Source: Candidatus Woesearchaeota archaeon (GTDB taxonomy: Archaea > Nanobdellota > Nanobdellia > Woesearchaeales > GW2011-AR15). From it: a stretch of 64,000 nucleotides of DNA. A program made the translations under genes and the position numbers. The notes beneath the pieces are model-generated. The model worked only from the letters and a program-made list of their open reading frames with translations. It was not told the origin of the DNA and did no database searches. Positions within the stretch are counted from its first letter, which is position 1. Each line of letters starts with the position of its first letter. Positions 5,573-57,812 of this stretch are shown here, one piece after another. Location of the stretch: NCBI GenBank assembly GCA_016935095.1, contig JAFGRO010000076.1:15030-79029 (forward strand), read 5' to 3'.

Positions 5573-6838
5573 ATGGGAAAAATAAGTCCAGTATCAGCAA
5601 AATATATTATTCATGCGTCAATTGATATAGAAGGAGTAGTAGACAGACCAGATGTTATCGGCGCGGTATTTGGTCAGACAGAAGGTCTTTTAGGCAGTGA
5701 ACTGGAGCTTAGAGAGCTTCAGCGTTCTGGCAGAATAGGCAGAATAGAAGTAGAAACTGAAACAAGGAGCGGAAAAACAAAAGGATCTATTGTTATTCCA
5801 TCTTCACTGGATAAAGCAGAAACAGCAATTGTAGGAGCAGCACTTGAGATTATCCAGAGAATTGGGCCTTGTAATGCTAAAATTCATGTTCAGAATATAG
5901 AGGATGTCAGGGTTTCAAAAAGACGTTATGTAATTGACAGGGCAAAGGAACTTCTGAAGCAACTAATGGATACAGTTATGCCGGACTCACAGGAACTAAG
6001 TGATGAAGTGGCTTATTCTGTTAGGGTAATGGAAATTAAGGAATATGGTAAAGCAAGACTTCCGGCAGGGCCTAACATAGAGGATTCAGATGAGATTATT
6101 GTCGTGGAAGGAAGGGCAGATGTTTTAAACCTCTTAAAACACGGGATAAAAAATGCTGTTGCAATTAACGGTACATCTATTCCTCCAGAAATTATTGAAT
6201 TAGCTAATAAAAAGATTGTTACTGTTTTTGTTGATGGTGATCGTGGCGGCAAATTGATTCTACAGGAATTAATGGGTCTGACAGAAATAGATTTTGTATG
6301 CATGGCACAGCAGGGAAAGGAAGTAGAGGAGTTAACAAAAAAAGAGATTCACAAATCACTGAGGGGAAAAGTTTCAGCGGAACAGGCGAAACTGGAATTT
6401 AACTTGCAAACACCTGAGCCGGAATCTGAAAGAAAGAAAATATTAATCAAATCAACAAAAGAAATCAAACCCACTATTAAAAAACCTATTTCAAAAACAA
6501 TTCCTGTAAATGTTCCTGAAATCAAGCAGGTTAAGAAAAAAAGCCTGGATGATAATGAAAAAAAGAAATTCAACAGTATGCTGGAAAGCCTGATAGGAAC
6601 AAGGGGAGCTTATATTCTTGATGAAAAACTCAATATTCTGGGTAAAGTCCCTGTAAGTGAATTACTGTCTACAATTAAAAGCCTGAGTTCAGGGGTTTAT
6701 GCAATTGTATTTGACGGAATAATAGAAAAAGACCTGCTTTCAGTATGTGAAAAATCAAATATTAATTTTTTAGTGGGTATGAGTTCAAAGGTAGGAGATT
6801 CTCCGCAATTAACAATCTTAACAGCAGATGATTTTTAA
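5573..6838 (+). CDS. dnaG: Archaeal DnaG primase (Toprim domain)
   Basis: N-terminus MGKISPVSAKYIIHASIDIEGVVDRPDVIGAVFGQTEGLLG is typical of archaeal DnaG. Toprim motifs IIVVEGRADVLNLLKHG and VFVDGDRGG. GGAGGAG SD lies 6 nt upstream. Confidence 0.85.
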   Translation: MGKISPVSAKYIIHASIDIEGVVDRPDVIGAVFGQTEGLLGSELELRELQRSGRIGRIEVETETRSGKTKGSIVIPSSLDKAETAIVGAALEIIQRIGPCNAKIHVQNIEDVRVSKRRYVIDRAKELLKQLMDTVMPDSQELSDEVAYSVRVMEIKEYGKARLPAGPNIEDSDEIIVVEGRADVLNLLKHGIKNAVAINGTSIPPEIIELANKKIVTVFVDGDRGGKLILQELMGLTEIDFVCMAQQGKEVEELTKKEIHKSLRGKVSAEQAKLEFNLQTPEPESERKKILIKSTKEIKPTIKKPISKTIPVNVPEIKQVKKKSLDDNEKKKFNSMLESLIGTRGAYILDEKLNILGKVPVSELLSTIKSLSSGVYAIVFDGIIEKDLLSVCEKSNINFLVGMSSKVGDSPQLTILTADDF

Positions 6839-9341: not shown

Positions 9342-10286
9342 ATGGAAATCGGAAAAGTAAAAATTAAAGATAAATTGGTTCTTGCGCCAATGTCTAAAGT
9401 GACTTCTCTCCCTTTTAGATTACTTTGTAAAAAGTATTCCTGCGGCCTGGTTTTTAGTGAGATGATAAATGCAAATGCCATGGTTAGAAATAACAAGGTG
9501 ACTCTGGGTAAATTAATTACAATAAATCAGGAAAAACCTGTTGCAATGCAGCTTTTTGCACAGAACACAGAAATCTTGGTAAAAGCAGCTGATAAATTAG
9601 ATTGCGACATAGTTGACATTAATCTTGGCTGCCCTGATTATTCTGTTATGCAGCAGGGTGCAGGCTCTGCATTGCTGAAAAGGCCTAAAAAAATATATGA
9701 AATAATATCAGCATTAGTTAAAAAAGTCAAAAAGCCGATTACTGCAAAAATACGCACAGGTCTTGACAGGAATCATATAAATGCATTAGAAGTTGCGAAA
9801 CTAATTGAAAAAGCAGGCGCATCTGCAATTACTGTTCATGGAAGAAACGTTGCACAAAAATATTCAGGAAAAGCAGACTGGGAAATTATCAGAAGAGTGA
9901 AAGAGACAGTCTCTATTCCAGTCATAGCTAATGGCGATGTTTTTGATGAATTATCTGCTGAAAAATGTTTAGAGCAAACAAAAGCAGATTTTTTGATGAT
10001 AGGAAGGGCAGCAATTGGCGAGCCGTATATCTTCAGGAGGATAAATCATTATCTTAAAACAGGCAAATTGCTTCCTAAACAGACATTAAAACAAAAAATT
10101 AATGAATTTTTTGAATATCTTGAACTGGCAGAGAAATATGACTGCCTAAAATATGCTGAAATAAAAACACATGCCCAATGGTTCACTAAATCAATTAAAG
10201 GGGGCTCTGAAATAAGAAAGAAGCTTACTTATGCAGATACAGTTGAGAGAATCACTCAGATTATGAAATCCATAAATTATAAATAA
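9342..10286 (+). CDS. dus: tRNA-dihydrouridine synthase (Dus family, FMN TIM barrel)
   Basis: LAPMSKVTSLPFR ... DINLGCP ... ITAKIRTG ... ITVHGR motifs. Confidence 0.8.
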   Translation: MEIGKVKIKDKLVLAPMSKVTSLPFRLLCKKYSCGLVFSEMINANAMVRNNKVTLGKLITINQEKPVAMQLFAQNTEILVKAADKLDCDIVDINLGCPDYSVMQQGAGSALLKRPKKIYEIISALVKKVKKPITAKIRTGLDRNHINALEVAKLIEKAGASAITVHGRNVAQKYSGKADWEIIRRVKETVSIPVIANGDVFDELSAEKCLEQTKADFLMIGRAAIGEPYIFRRINHYLKTGKLLPKQTLKQKINEFFEYLELAEKYDCLKYAEIKTHAQWFTKSIKGGSEIRKKLTYADTVERITQIMKSINYK

Positions 10287-11529: not shown

Positions 11530-11623
11530 ACCCTCACCCCCAATAAAGTTATAATCTAATTTATTAAATCAAACTTTAAATATTTTGCTATTTTTGAGTA
11601 GATAGGTTAAGAATAAAAAAGAC

Positions 11624-11792
11624 TGGGGACAGAGGGATTTGAACCCTCATCCGGTGGTCACTTCATCAAGCGACTGACCACATTCTAAGTCATTGTCTTT
11701 CGACTCATCGCTCCAACACTGGAGCCACCTATTCTAGCCAAGATGTACCCTTCTTGAATTTGATTTTTTCAAAAGGCTTATACTATGTCCCC
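11624..11792 (-). tRNA. Intron-containing tRNA gene (169 nt; isotype/anticodon not resolved by eye; probably more than one intron, one in the D-loop)
   Basis: Minus-strand ends form a perfect acceptor stem GGGGACA ... TGTCCCC-A. Canonical T-arm GAGGG-TTCAAAT-CCCTC. D-stem GTA/TAC flanks a ~23-nt hairpin insert (TTTTGAA...TTCAAGA). About 95 nt of extra sequence sits between the arms. Confidence 0.5.
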
Positions 11793-11955
11793 GTCTTTAT
11801 TCTATGGATTAGAGGATTATATATAAAAGTTTTGGGAAATTTATTATCTTAGAAAATATATATTTTACATAATAAACATTTATATACCCTTTTACACAAT
11901 ATTAATATTAAGAGGTGTTGTTTTAATCAAAAACATAACCAAGCACGATCAATAT

Positions 11956-46300: not shown

Positions 46301-47914
46301 ATGTCTCCAATGACAGCACTTTCCGCTACATATAATGTAGATCTAACTAAATATAATGCTTTTCTATTAGAAAGATTAAAAAGTGAATTCCGGGCACGTT
46401 TATTACCAGAATCAACTGGAAGAAGACGAGTTTACCGAGATGGAGACCAACCTTGTGATTTATCAGAAGCACTTTATAATGATAGGCAAATTTGTTTACA
46501 GGGTGATCCTGGTTCTGGAAAAACTATGGCATTATTAAATGAAGGAATTAGAATTGTACAAGGAGAAGAAAGAAGTGAATATGGATTAACAACCCTTCTT
46601 TTAATGGAATTACATAGTTTAAGTACTGGATTGGATTTTTCAGCTCCTTATGAATTCTTTACAGCTTATTTACAAGGAATTGCACAAAAACTAGGTTTAT
46701 CAGATGACTTCCCTCAACAAGTGTATCAAGATCCTGGTACTGTTATTACACTTGATGGTCTAGATGAAATTGCTGATCCACAAATAAGAGAAAAAGTAAT
46801 ACAAAGCATCAATGAAGCCAAAGCAGCAGCAATTGCATCAAATGGAAAGTTGCCACAAATAATTGAAGTAGCAACTCGACCTTGGGTAACTGTTGAAGGT
46901 TTTATACCTTATGCCTTAGAACCATTAACAGAAGTACAAATGGCACAAATTTTTGTAGGTGAGTTAAATGCATATTTTGATAGTATTTATGGTGAGGATG
47001 GATTGAAAGGAAAAGCTAGAGAAACTCAAATCAGGCAAAGAACTGATGATTTTCTCATGTATCTTTCACAAAGATCCTGGAGTCATATATTAAGAAATCC
47101 ATCATATTTGAGATATGCAGTACATCATCAAAATCCATTACCAGGAACATTTGGAGAATTTCTTGAAGCAGCAACTGATGGTTTTTTAATAGGTATTCAA
47201 GCAAGAAGAGATTTAGTGGAAGAATTAAATGTAGTTGTAGATAGACATCATCAACGACTTGGACAACATATATCTGATATGATTCCAGTATTAAGAGAAA
47301 TGGCATGGGTAGCACATACAGAAAAAAGTCGAGCTTTACCTTTAGATAAAATATTATCTATAGAAAGGTGGGATCCAAATGGTAGCTATTCAAATTCACT
47401 TTTATCTCAATTACCTACTGAAAGAAAAGAACAAATGCTTGATAAAATTGCGGAGAAATCACCTTTTTTAGCTCGCTATGAAGCAGAAGGAATTACTACT
47501 AAACATTATTTTTTTACACATCTAGGATTACAAGAATTTTTAGCTGGACAAGCACTTGCAGATAGAATAAATGAAGGGAAAATATCTCTTGATGAAGTAG
47601 ACAATATGCTTGATAATTCTTGGTGGAGACAACCTGTCCTTTATTCTTTTTCTAGTTTAAACTGGAATCAGGCAAATGCATTAGCTGAAAAAGTAATACA
47701 GAGACAGGATAGATCTTTAATGGCTGATGCTTATCATATGGTACAGGGAAAAGTACTTCTACATTACTTAGAAGCTTTTGAAGCAGCAAATAGTGAATTA
47801 CAGACAGAGACTACAATTGATGAGCAAGAGCTAAGGGCAGAATTAAAAAAGGCTGAGGGATCATCTTCTCAGAAACAAAAGAGAGGAAGATTAGGTTTTT
47901 TGGAAAAAAAATGA
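46301..47914 (+). CDS. NACHT-type STAND NTPase (short, 537 aa; no obvious effector or repeat sensor domain)
   Basis: Walker A GDPGSGKTMALL and NACHT-style Walker B VITLDGLDEIAD. Distinct A/T-ending codon dialect (tta, caa, gga, aga, gaa). Confidence 0.6.
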   Translation: MSPMTALSATYNVDLTKYNAFLLERLKSEFRARLLPESTGRRRVYRDGDQPCDLSEALYNDRQICLQGDPGSGKTMALLNEGIRIVQGEERSEYGLTTLLLMELHSLSTGLDFSAPYEFFTAYLQGIAQKLGLSDDFPQQVYQDPGTVITLDGLDEIADPQIREKVIQSINEAKAAAIASNGKLPQIIEVATRPWVTVEGFIPYALEPLTEVQMAQIFVGELNAYFDSIYGEDGLKGKARETQIRQRTDDFLMYLSQRSWSHILRNPSYLRYAVHHQNPLPGTFGEFLEAATDGFLIGIQARRDLVEELNVVVDRHHQRLGQHISDMIPVLREMAWVAHTEKSRALPLDKILSIERWDPNGSYSNSLLSQLPTERKEQMLDKIAEKSPFLARYEAEGITTKHYFFTHLGLQEFLAGQALADRINEGKISLDEVDNMLDNSWWRQPVLYSFSSLNWNQANALAEKVIQRQDRSLMADAYHMVQGKVLLHYLEAFEAANSELQTETTIDEQELRAELKKAEGSSSQKQKRGRLGFLEKK

Positions 47915-53103: not shown

Positions 53104-54974
<1,871 letters not shown>

Positions 54975-57326: not shown

Positions 57327-57677
57327 TTAACCTATAATCTTAACTTTTGAACCTTTTGGATTATTTTTTATTAGATCTAGTATTGTTATTGCTTTTGATC
57401 CTTTAGAGAGGATTTTTTCTTTAGCTGAACCTGAAAAACTGTATGCTGCAATAGTAATTTTTTTATTTAAATCACCCATGCCGAGAACCTTTCCCGGAAC
57501 AACAATGGTTTCATTATCTTTGCTAAATCTGTCTATTTTTGATAAATTTACTATTCTTCTTTTTTTGGTAGGTTTTTCTAAATCAAGAGCAATCCTCTTC
57601 CATATTTTAACATCCTGTTTAATTGAAACAGTCTTGAGATCTGTTATCAATGAATTTAAATGCATATTTGATTTCAT
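57327..57677 (-). CDS. rpl18e: 50S ribosomal protein L18e (eL18)
   Basis: eL18-like sequence. Start moved to the internal MKSN (57675-57677) because the longer ORF would overlap the tRNA-Leu gene. Confidence 0.7.
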   Translation of the reverse strand: MKSNMHLNSLITDLKTVSIKQDVKIWKRIALDLEKPTKKRRIVNLSKIDRFSKDNETIVVPGKVLGMGDLNKKITIAAYSFSGSAKEKILSKGSKAITILDLIKNNPKGSKVKIIG

Positions 57678-57702
57678 TTTTTTATATAATCTTTTATTAT
57701 AA

Positions 57703-57812
57703 TGCGGGGGACGTGATTTGAACACGCGCAGGCACTAAGCCACATGGACCTCAACCATGCCCGTTTGACCATTCCGTATTCATTTTATTAATGAATTCTC
57801 CGGCACCCCCGC
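57703..57812 (-). tRNA. tRNA-Leu(GAG) with a ~22-nt hairpin intron in the D-loop (non-canonical position)
   Basis: Minus strand GCGGGGG-TG-CCG-GAG[AATTCATTAATAAAATGAATAC]GGAATGGTCAAA-CGG-G-CATGG-TTGAGGT-CCATG-variable arm TGGCTTAGTGCCTG-CGTG-TTCAAAT-CACG-T-CCCCCGC-A. Anticodon loop TT-GAG-GT. Long variable arm (type II). No encoded CCA. Confidence 0.75.

Follow-up and report, generated by a model that had tools for sequence, protein, structure and literature searches.

A tRNA-Trp(CCA) gene with two predicted protein-spliced introns and a guide-like intron module in a DPANN-type archaeon

The relaxed splicing motif (HBh′) of the Methanopyrus pre-tRNA-Glu is cut poorly by strict splicing endonucleases and well by those of broad specificity (PMC5829648). 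Sampled members of the DPANN archaea (Woesearchaeota and Pacearchaeota among them) have extra-loop endonucleases and a marked rise in disrupted tRNA genes, loop-bearing α4 splicing enzymes have been reported in DPANN, and the predicted tRNA sets of DPANN genomes are often noted to be incomplete (PMC5829648). A tRNA-Trp intron that is a box C/D guide for C34 and U39 has been described (PMC4090602, PMC3326292, PMC11408192); in Haloferax it guides the 2′-O-methylation of C34 by the fifth-nucleotide rule (PMC4090602, PMC11408192), and once excised it forms a circle that is stable and active (PMC3326292). Here we analyse a 64,000-nucleotide stretch of a Candidatus Woesearchaeota genome (assembly GCA_016935095.1, contig JAFGRO010000076.1, positions 15,030 to 79,029), referred to as the window, which contains on its minus strand a 169-nucleotide (nt) tRNA gene (11792..11624) interrupted at two sites.

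The locus is very probably a tRNA-Trp(CCA) gene with two protein-spliced introns from a low-GC (the window is about 33% GC), DPANN-type archaeon, in keeping with the original prediction, made from the sequence alone, of a multi-intron tRNA in a small-genome archaeon. The whole gene (11624..11792, minus strand) consists of three exons and two introns, identified with the Rfam tRNA model and with ARAGORN after splicing; positions marked as local are counted along the minus strand from 11792 = 1. Exon 1 (11778..11792) comprises GGGGACA, U8, A9, the 5′ strand of the D-stem (GUAU), A14 and A15. Intron 1 (11743..11777, 35 nt), delimited by bulge-helix-bulge (BHB) geometry and by orthologues, lies in the D-loop between positions 15 and 16. 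Exon 2 (11719..11742) comprises the remainder of the D-loop (CUUGGCUA, with G18, G19 and A21), GAAU, A26, GGUGG and the loop sequence CUCCAG, within which the anticodon CCA is at 11722..11720. Intron 2 (11659..11718, 60 nt), delimited by hBHBh′ geometry, occupies the canonical 37/38 site, and exon 3 (11624..11658) comprises A38, CCACC, GGAU, GAGGG-UUCAAAU-CCCUC, UGUCCCC and A73. The predicted exon junctions are UAUAA|CUUGG and CUCCAG|ACCACC. The in silico spliced product has 74 nt, leaving 95 nt of extra sequence (169 − 74), the amount that had been estimated, and the 3′-terminal CCA is not encoded in the gene.

In the spliced product the acceptor stem (GGGGACA/UGUCCCC) is paired at 7/7 positions and followed by the discriminator A, and the T-arm is canonical, both as originally read. 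The core nucleotides U8, A14, G18, G19, A21 and U33 and the T-loop UUCAAAU are all found, the anticodon loop is CUCCAGA (7 nt), and the mature D-arm is GUAU-AACUUGGCUA-GAAU. A73 and G1-C72, which we take to be identity elements for tryptophanyl-tRNA synthetase of the archaeal/eukaryal type, are both read in the sequence. The variable region (GGAU) is 4 nt long and short of the >10 nt of class II tRNAs, which disposes of the alternative put forward earlier, in which a type-II tRNA would carry a large insertion. The anticodon could not at first be placed by eye; the hairpin GCUCCA-GUGU-UGGAGC contains CCA in CUCCAG, so the gene is that of tRNA-Trp. This hairpin and the two noted with it (UUUUGAA...UUCAAGA and GUGGUCA...UGACCAC) are all in the sequence. 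A TATA-box-like element (TTTATATATA, 11818..11827, minus strand), read from the sequence, lies 26-35 nt upstream of the mature 5′ end, and similar TTTAAA/TTTATA elements lie upstream of the related genes L005 and L013. A run of six T residues (11615..11620, minus strand), 4 nt past the discriminator, is likely an archaeal oligo-T terminator; T-runs are found downstream of the gene in most of its tRNA-Trp relatives.

The Rfam tRNA model (RF00005; gathering score 29 bits) aligned end to end over the 169 nt (model positions 1-71) with 32.4 bits and E = 6.6e-5 when a 600-nt slice was searched, with insertions of 43 nt in the D-loop and 64 nt in the anticodon loop. A search of the 64 kb for a 5-bp T-arm together with a fully complementary 7-bp acceptor stem returned two loci, the tRNA-Trp gene and a tRNA-Leu gene (57812..57703), and the RNA of the tRNA-Trp locus folds at −60.7 kcal/mol (z = −4.3, 200 shuffles). 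The Rfam match, the arm search and the fold z-score together indicate that the locus is real and not a chance match. The identical 169 nt are present in an independent Logan assembly (SRR13394437; L023). Over the whole window, Rfam gave no tRNA match at the gathering threshold and none at E ≤ 1, and ARAGORN found no tRNA genes either by default or with anticodon-loop introns of up to 150 nt allowed. Once local 16-50 and 75-134 were removed, ARAGORN returned tRNA-Trp(cca) with a score of 116.5. This result and the two BHB motifs described below are the outcome of two of the checks that the original prediction had proposed, ARAGORN and a search for BHB motifs; it had named the lack of a consistent cloverleaf, or a pseudogene, as grounds for giving it up, and what was found is a cloverleaf with BHB motifs conserved in relatives.

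Every possible intron was scored for a BHB motif with a 4-bp central helix and a 3-nt bulge 3′ of each strand, the cut being placed after the second bulge nucleotide. Two introns stand out and jointly leave the 74-nt cloverleaf; the expectation of at least two introns is thereby sharpened to exactly two, with no third. For intron 1 (local 16-50, 11777-11743) the central helix pairs exon nucleotides G10 U11 A12 U13 with intron nucleotides G45 U46 A47 C48 (4/4), the bulges (A14 A15|G16 and A49 U50|C51) are each exactly 3 nt, and the inner helix of 6 bp, of the type CCUUUU.../...AAGAGG, opens with C17-G44 and C18-G43 and continues into the UUUUGAA/UUCAAGA hairpin. This geometry was matched in 17 of 100000 shuffles of the intron in place, and RNAfold forms the central and inner helices when the acceptor, T and anticodon stems alone are constrained. 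The motif is of the HBh′ type, with a 4/4 central helix, a bulge (AA|G) closed by the 6-bp inner helix, an outer helix of 0-1 bp and the site 15/16. The D-loop insert that had been predicted is therefore this intron, and it is at the same site as that of the tRNA-Leu gene (both 15/16), but the GTA and TAC taken for the halves of the D-stem are not: they belong to the splicing motif, as parts of its 4-bp central helix GUAU (10-13)/GUAC, in which GUAC is intronic, and the 3′ strand of the D-stem is GAAU, 14 nt further on. Other D-loop boundaries (local 17-49, 17-51, 19-52, and 19-42 with 50-63) were considered and ruled out by BHB geometry and by the orthologues.

Introns in the D-loop were found in 11 distinct genes (that of the window and 10 others) and are 22-35 nt long. 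All have the bulges AA|R and AN|C and the central helix GUAU/GUAC, and with an outer helix of 0-1 bp they are consistently of the HBh′ form. The inner hairpin always closes with CC/GG (CU·GG in L014); its third pair varies by gene (U-A, A-U or G-C), and the remainder varies in sequence and length. No description of this 15/16 intron family of tRNA-Trp was found in the searchable literature.

Intron 2 (local 75-134, 11718-11659) has the features of a canonical hBHBh′ motif at 37/38, so the label of non-canonical introns holds for intron 1 and fails for intron 2. Its outer helix is formed by the 5 bp of the anticodon stem (GGUGG/CCACC), A36 G37|U and U G|A38 make up the two bulges, and the inner helix has 5 bp, 4 of them G·U; 184 of 100000 shuffles matched this geometry.

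The introns were further delimited by comparison with orthologues. GTDB species representatives were scanned with a pattern of the 3′ exon, which gave 13 archaeal loci, none of them from the genome of the window, and metagenomes were scanned with a pattern across the boundary between the D-loop intron and exon 2, which gave 9 further loci. The close tRNA-Trp family comprises 18 loci including that of the window, or 17 distinct genes (L010 and L017 are the same), i.e. 17 further loci of which 16 are distinct. The assemblies are mostly titled Woesearchaeota or Nanoarchaeota, and a few 'uncultured archaeon', 'archaeon' or 'Methanosarcinales'. All four intron states are seen: no intron (L005, L008, L009 and L012), the D-loop intron alone (L010 = L017, L015, L019 and L022), the 37/38 intron alone (L001 and L013) and both introns (the window gene, L004, L014, L016, L018, L020 and L021). 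Intron 1 is absent from L001, L005, L008, L009, L012 and L013. Exon 1 runs directly into exon 2 in L005, L008, L009 and L012 and likewise in L013, whose junction is identical to that predicted for the window and in which the sequence of exon 2 (GTATAACTTGGCTAGAATAGG) is unbroken. In the uninterrupted genes the sequence at the predicted D-loop junction is GTATAAC(C/T)TGGCTAGAAT.

The same orthologues refute two other ways of splicing the locus. A layout with three introns, which takes GUA(U)/(G)UAC as the D-stem and removes local ~19-42, 14 nt at ~50-63 and an anticodon-loop intron, also gives tRNA-Trp(cca) with ARAGORN (116.7) and has a better-paired D-stem. Its first two introns have no BHB motif, however, its D-loop (AAGCCGG) would be without A21, and the supposed 14-nt intron is exon in the uninterrupted orthologues, which read GTATAAC(C/T)TGGCTAGAATAG through the predicted junction and have no GGGTAC; we regard this layout as highly improbable. 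A tRNA-Arg(CCU) is what ARAGORN (option -i) reports when the D-loop intron alone has been removed: it shifts the 60-nt intron by 2 nt, splicing after C35 and starting exon 2 from UGA, with a score of 108.9. These boundaries lack a BHB motif, the score is below that of the tRNA-Trp product (116.5), and all uninterrupted orthologues read CUCCA(G/A)A, with the anticodon CCA, as do 18/18 family members, so that tRNA-Arg hardly deserves consideration.

Every predicted product of the family is, like that of the tRNA-Trp gene with two introns, 74 nt long. The spliced product of L004, which has two introns, is identical to the uninterrupted L005 (74/74), and that of L022, with its D-loop intron, is identical to the uninterrupted L008 (74/74), the genes of each pair being from different assemblies. 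Identical products with differing intron states imply recent gain or loss of introns in the clade; the 15/16 intron, which one gene has and another with the same exons lacks, might be an element that has moved recently. Among the 15 distinct predicted products, 94% of the cloverleaf cells are paired and 11/21 pairs are changed on both sides, which was reached by 0/500 shuffles; sliding the 3′ partners lowers the pairing to 45-60%. The exception is the D-stem, in which G10·U25, U11-A24 and U13·G22 are kept and 12-23 is A·A, unpaired in 13/15 products. The whole clade has this weak D-stem, uninterrupted genes included. The neighbourhood of the gene is not conserved: tblastn of 11 neighbouring proteins of the window against all loci gave one weak match.

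Several observations weigh against a functional tRNA-Trp gene with two spliced introns. The D-stem of the window gene has one Watson-Crick pair, two G·U pairs and one A·A mismatch (G10·U25, U11-A24, A12·A23 and U13·G22), and this, together with the failure of standard tools to find the locus, is what might be expected of a tRNA-derived pseudogene, or of a relic damaged by insertions, from which no functional tRNA is made. Such a relic is, however, very unlikely: the exons show compensatory changes in three stems, at least 11 distinct genes keep the interrupted architecture with intact splicing motifs, uninterrupted orthologues scoring 54-60 bits have the weak D-stem too, and promoter-like and terminator-like signals are in place. 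In intron 1 the outer helix is a single pair (A9-U52), and the second bulge of this relaxed motif is not closed. Given the missing outer helix and the literature on such motifs, an endonuclease of broad specificity would be needed, and no tRNA_int_endo domain was found by Pfam among the 60 open reading frames (ORFs) of the window. The metagenome pattern contained GGGTACA, so that L014-L022 were bound to share this strand of the central helix; the independent cases are L004 and L010, found by the exon-only scan.

In intron 2 the central helix (CUCC/GAAG) has 3/4 pairs, with a C34·A mismatch that is its single departure from the strict motif. Geometry and mismatch are kept in 7/9 related introns: the partner strand of C32-C35 is GAAG in the window, L001, L004, L013, L014 and L021 and GUAG in L020, never GGAG, so C34 is always mismatched in these seven. 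L016 and L018 have GGCU in its place, and their BHB is outside the standard geometry. The BHB conformer of intron 2 lies ~14 kcal/mol above the minimum free energy structure, in which the anticodon loop is paired with an intronic UGGAG. Since this pairing and the BHB central helix share C32-C35, the energy gap implies a conformational switch or assistance by protein. Finally, the 64 kb cover part of the genome, leaving room for a second, uninterrupted tRNA-Trp gene elsewhere, and we infer the mature tRNA, its splicing and any methylation from DNA.

The arrangement suggests a processing pathway for the tRNA-Trp gene. The 169-nt transcript would most likely start from the TATA-type promoter and end at the oligo-T run. 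The archaeal splicing endonuclease, which for intron 1 would have to tolerate relaxed motifs, would cut both BHB motifs after the second nucleotide of each bulge, releasing 35 nt from the D-loop between 15 and 16 and 60 nt from the anticodon loop at 37/38. An RtcB-type ligase would then join the three exons into the 74-nt tRNA and circularise the intron; the transcript ends would be processed, and CCA would be added after splicing. Both the splicing and the enzymes named are what we infer for this locus from the motifs and from described systems.

Intron 2 may have a second role. Its first 30 nt read U-GU-UGGAG-CG-AUGA-GUC-GAAA-GAC-AAUGAC. UGGAG (11711..11715, minus strand) is complementary to C32-A36 of the anticodon loop; extended by local C83 it pairs with G31-A36 of the anticodon arm, and this duplex is the GCUCCA/UGGAGC hairpin noted at the outset. 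It is followed (11689..11708, minus strand) by a D-like AUGA (11708-11705), a hairpin GUC-GAAA-GAC (11704-11695) and a C-like AAUGAC (11694-11689). AUGA, the 3-bp stem with its GNRA loop and AAUGA could form the tandem G·A pairs of a kink-turn. Counting upstream from the D-like box, the fifth nucleotide is in all aligned introns the G opposite C34. UGGAG itself is kept in 10/11 aligned tRNA-Trp introns, and its pairs with C32, U33 and C34 are never broken. A search expression for the module (UGGAG, 2 nt, xxGA, hairpin, RAUGA) matches all tRNA-Trp 37/38 introns of the set except those of L011 and L013, which have variant versions by eye. The matches include L003 of the Altiarchaeales and L006 of the Methanobacteriota, the latter with consensus CUGA and AUGAUGA. 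Outside tRNA genes there were three scattered matches (one locus counted twice), which we take as chance.

These features suggest that UGGAG, pairing with C32-A36 upstream of the kink-turn hairpin, would direct the 2′-O-methylation of C34 as in Haloferax and would compete with the BHB conformer. The chance that the 37/38 intron is also a box C/D-type guide for C34 appears to us just below even. What tells against it is that the guide duplex, with neighbouring nucleotides, is 6-7 bp long (6 Watson-Crick pairs of G31-A36 with local U78-C83 and one possible G·U), against roughly 8-12 bp for box C/D guides; that AUGA and AAUGAC deviate from the consensus of box D (CUGA) and box C (RUGAUGA); and that covariation in the kink-turn hairpin and guide duplex is not significant (2 double-change pairs, a number reached by 119/500 shuffles). 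The competing explanation, that the 37/38 intron is merely an intron whose UGGAG and hairpin shape the precursor and guide no methylation, has about an even chance in our estimate. It draws on these same weaknesses, on the loss of the 37/38 intron altogether in many relatives and on the Pfam scans of the 60 ORFs of the window, in which no fibrillarin, Nop5 or L7Ae was found. It has to contend with a module that stays in register, from UGGAG through xxGA and hairpin to RAUGA, in nearly all 37/38 introns of the set, across Woesearchaeota-type, Altiarchaeales and Methanobacteriota genes, and with the placing of C34 in all of them by the rule of the Haloferax guide (PMC4090602, PMC11408192). We think that the UGGAG-D-hairpin-C module is a homologue of the Haloferax tRNA-Trp intron guide. 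If it truly guides methylation of C34 (Cm34), the Haloferax-type intron guide would extend to DPANN, Altiarchaeales and Methanobacteriota in minimal form; the comparison suggests that such a minimal tRNA-Trp intron guide exists outside the Euryarchaeota.

The segment 11663..11681 (minus strand) is particular to intron 2 of the window: the other Woesearchaeota-type introns lack it, and ~25 nt in all, GUGGUCA and UGAUGA among them, are extra relative to close relatives. The first of these motifs (11681-11675) has its complement in UG|ACCAC, which spans the 3′ splice site (positions 38-42), and the second (11668-11663) is a perfect box C consensus. Complementarity to 38-43 comparable to that of GUGGUCA was seen by eye in L006 and L003. 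For a further guide directed at position 39, GUGGU(CA) offers the complement of 38-42; a box with GA was looked for at a distance fitting that position and not found. Taken with the nucleotide preceding it, the partner strand of C32-C35 gives YGAAG, a sequence like a degenerate box C′ that most relatives keep 1-2 nt ahead of the 3′ splice site; circularisation of the intron would place it 11-12 nt from the D-like box, counted over the junction.

Intron 2 may even be a complete box C/D sRNA in circularly permuted order, although we consider this doubtful. Around the circularised intron, four box-like elements follow at roughly canonical C/D spacings: the C-like AAUGAC, a spacer of ~10-12 nt with GUGGU, a degenerate D′ (CAGU), a 4-nt loop, C′ (UGAUGA), a spacer of 11-14 nt over the ligation junction with the C34 guide, AUGA, and the closing stem. 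GA is missing from the would-be D′, and position 39 is not the one picked by the fifth-nucleotide rule. If the permuted reading is true, the guide unit for Cm34 becomes contiguous only once the intron has been excised and circularised.

Two of the collected loci have elements related in form to the intron module. In L017, at ~5880-5935 and likewise in L010, ~35-90 nt downstream of a tRNA-Trp gene without a 37/38 intron, GUGA-AA-GUGGAGC...GCUCCAC-C-GAUGA is followed by a T-run. This kink-turn hairpin has D-like and C-like boxes, ordered D-stem-C as in the intron module, and could be a stand-alone guide RNA; the 12-mers flanking it have no convincing complementarity to the tRNA-Trp of that genome. 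No stand-alone copy of UGGAG-D-hairpin-C was found, in the collected loci, near tRNA-Trp genes without a 37/38 intron. The Altiarchaeales metagenome-assembled genome of L003 has a 219-nt tRNA-Trp gene (1174-1392, reverse-complement coordinates) with a 145-nt 37/38 intron. This intron has the module in the form UGGAGCG-CCGA-hairpin(GCAA loop)-GAUGA, another unit of similar build (CAGGU as the complement of 38-42, a GGC-AAAA-GCC hairpin and GUGAAAC) and a long A/G-rich hairpin.

The second tRNA gene of the window, a tRNA-Leu(GAG) gene (57703-57812, minus strand) missed by the default tools, lies between the rpoD gene and the L18e-L13-S9 genes. Its intron (57797..57772, 26 nt), at the same 15/16 site as in tRNA-Trp, has the central helix CCG/CGG (3/4), an inner helix of 6 bp (AUUCAU/AUGAAU) and no outer helix, and its sequence is unrelated to that of the tRNA-Trp D-loop intron. 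ARAGORN identifies the spliced product as tRNA-Leu(gag) (117.4). The longest ORF of ribosomal protein L18e (57330-57725, minus strand) starts with GTG at 57725 and shares 23 nt with the 3′ end of the tRNA-Leu gene; translation probably starts further downstream. Other housekeeping genes assigned by Pfam in the window include those for GatD/GatE, Dus, tRNA-guanine transglycosylase (TGT), an S13-S4-S11-RpoD-L18e-L13-S9 cluster, HerA/NurA and Cdc48. The Dus-family dihydrouridine synthase is encoded at 9342-10286 (plus strand), and the TGT-family enzyme at 53143-54339 (plus strand; 399 amino acids, with the TGT domain only). In archaea the substrate of TGT is G15 in the D-loop. The tRNA-Leu gene has a G at this position, where its first exon ends at the 15/16 intron, and the tRNA-Trp gene has an A. 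A box C/D sRNA-like element (47024-47113, minus strand) has the stem CUCAAAU/AUUUGAG, AUGAUGG, a 12-nt spacer, AUGA and AUGAGAA ... CUGA. Its match to Rfam snoR64 is weak (26.9 bits, E = 0.86), and as it lies antisense inside a 537-residue ORF without a Pfam match it may be due to chance.

Both tRNA genes of the window are thus invisible to default ARAGORN and to the Rfam gathering threshold. The uninterrupted orthologues of tRNA-Trp score 54-60 bits with the Rfam model and the genes with the 37/38 intron alone 41-43 bits, and the relatives bearing the D-loop intron fall below the gathering threshold, as the window gene does. Without BHB-aware tools, genomes of this lineage will seem to lack tRNA-Trp and some tRNA-Leu.

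Compared with the Haloferax tRNA-Trp intron guide, the guide-like intron of the window is alike in being in the same tRNA at the same site, with an intronic stretch complementary to the anticodon loop that sets C34 opposite the fifth nucleotide upstream of a D-type box, in C/D-type boxes that may form a kink-turn and in a guide pairing that rivals the BHB fold (compared by description). It differs in length (60 nt against 105 nt), in its degenerate boxes (AUGA and AAUGAC), in the order guide-D-hairpin-C, in a duplex of 6-7 bp and in that a guide for position 39 is doubtful. With the canonical archaeal hBHBh′ intron at 37/38, intron 2 shares the site, a pair of 3-nt bulges set 4 bp apart and an outer helix formed by the anticodon stem, and it departs from it in the one C·A mismatch of the central helix, conserved in relatives, and in an inner helix made mostly of G·U pairs.

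The tRNA-Trp gene is a multi-intron archaeal tRNA gene and as such of an already-known type: like those of the Thermoproteales, Korarchaeota, ARMAN/DPANN and Methanopyrus, it combines BHB introns at 37/38 and in the D-loop of one gene, and its intron 1, like the D-loop intron of the M. kandleri pre-tRNA-Glu, is of the relaxed HBh′ form (PMC5829648). Its value is modest, and by comparison of sequences appears to lie in a clean comparative proof of the junctions and in the definition of a 15/16 intron family of tRNA-Trp. The same 74-nt tRNA with no, either or both introns makes an unusually clean natural series, which fixes the splice junctions from DNA comparison and documents recent gain or loss of introns. 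By contrast with the known multi-intron genes, the family of the window has its D-loop intron at 15/16 of tRNA-Trp and is polymorphic for intron presence and absence, and the central helix of its splicing motif engages the D-stem's entire 5′ strand, in a pairing stronger than that of the mature D-stem.

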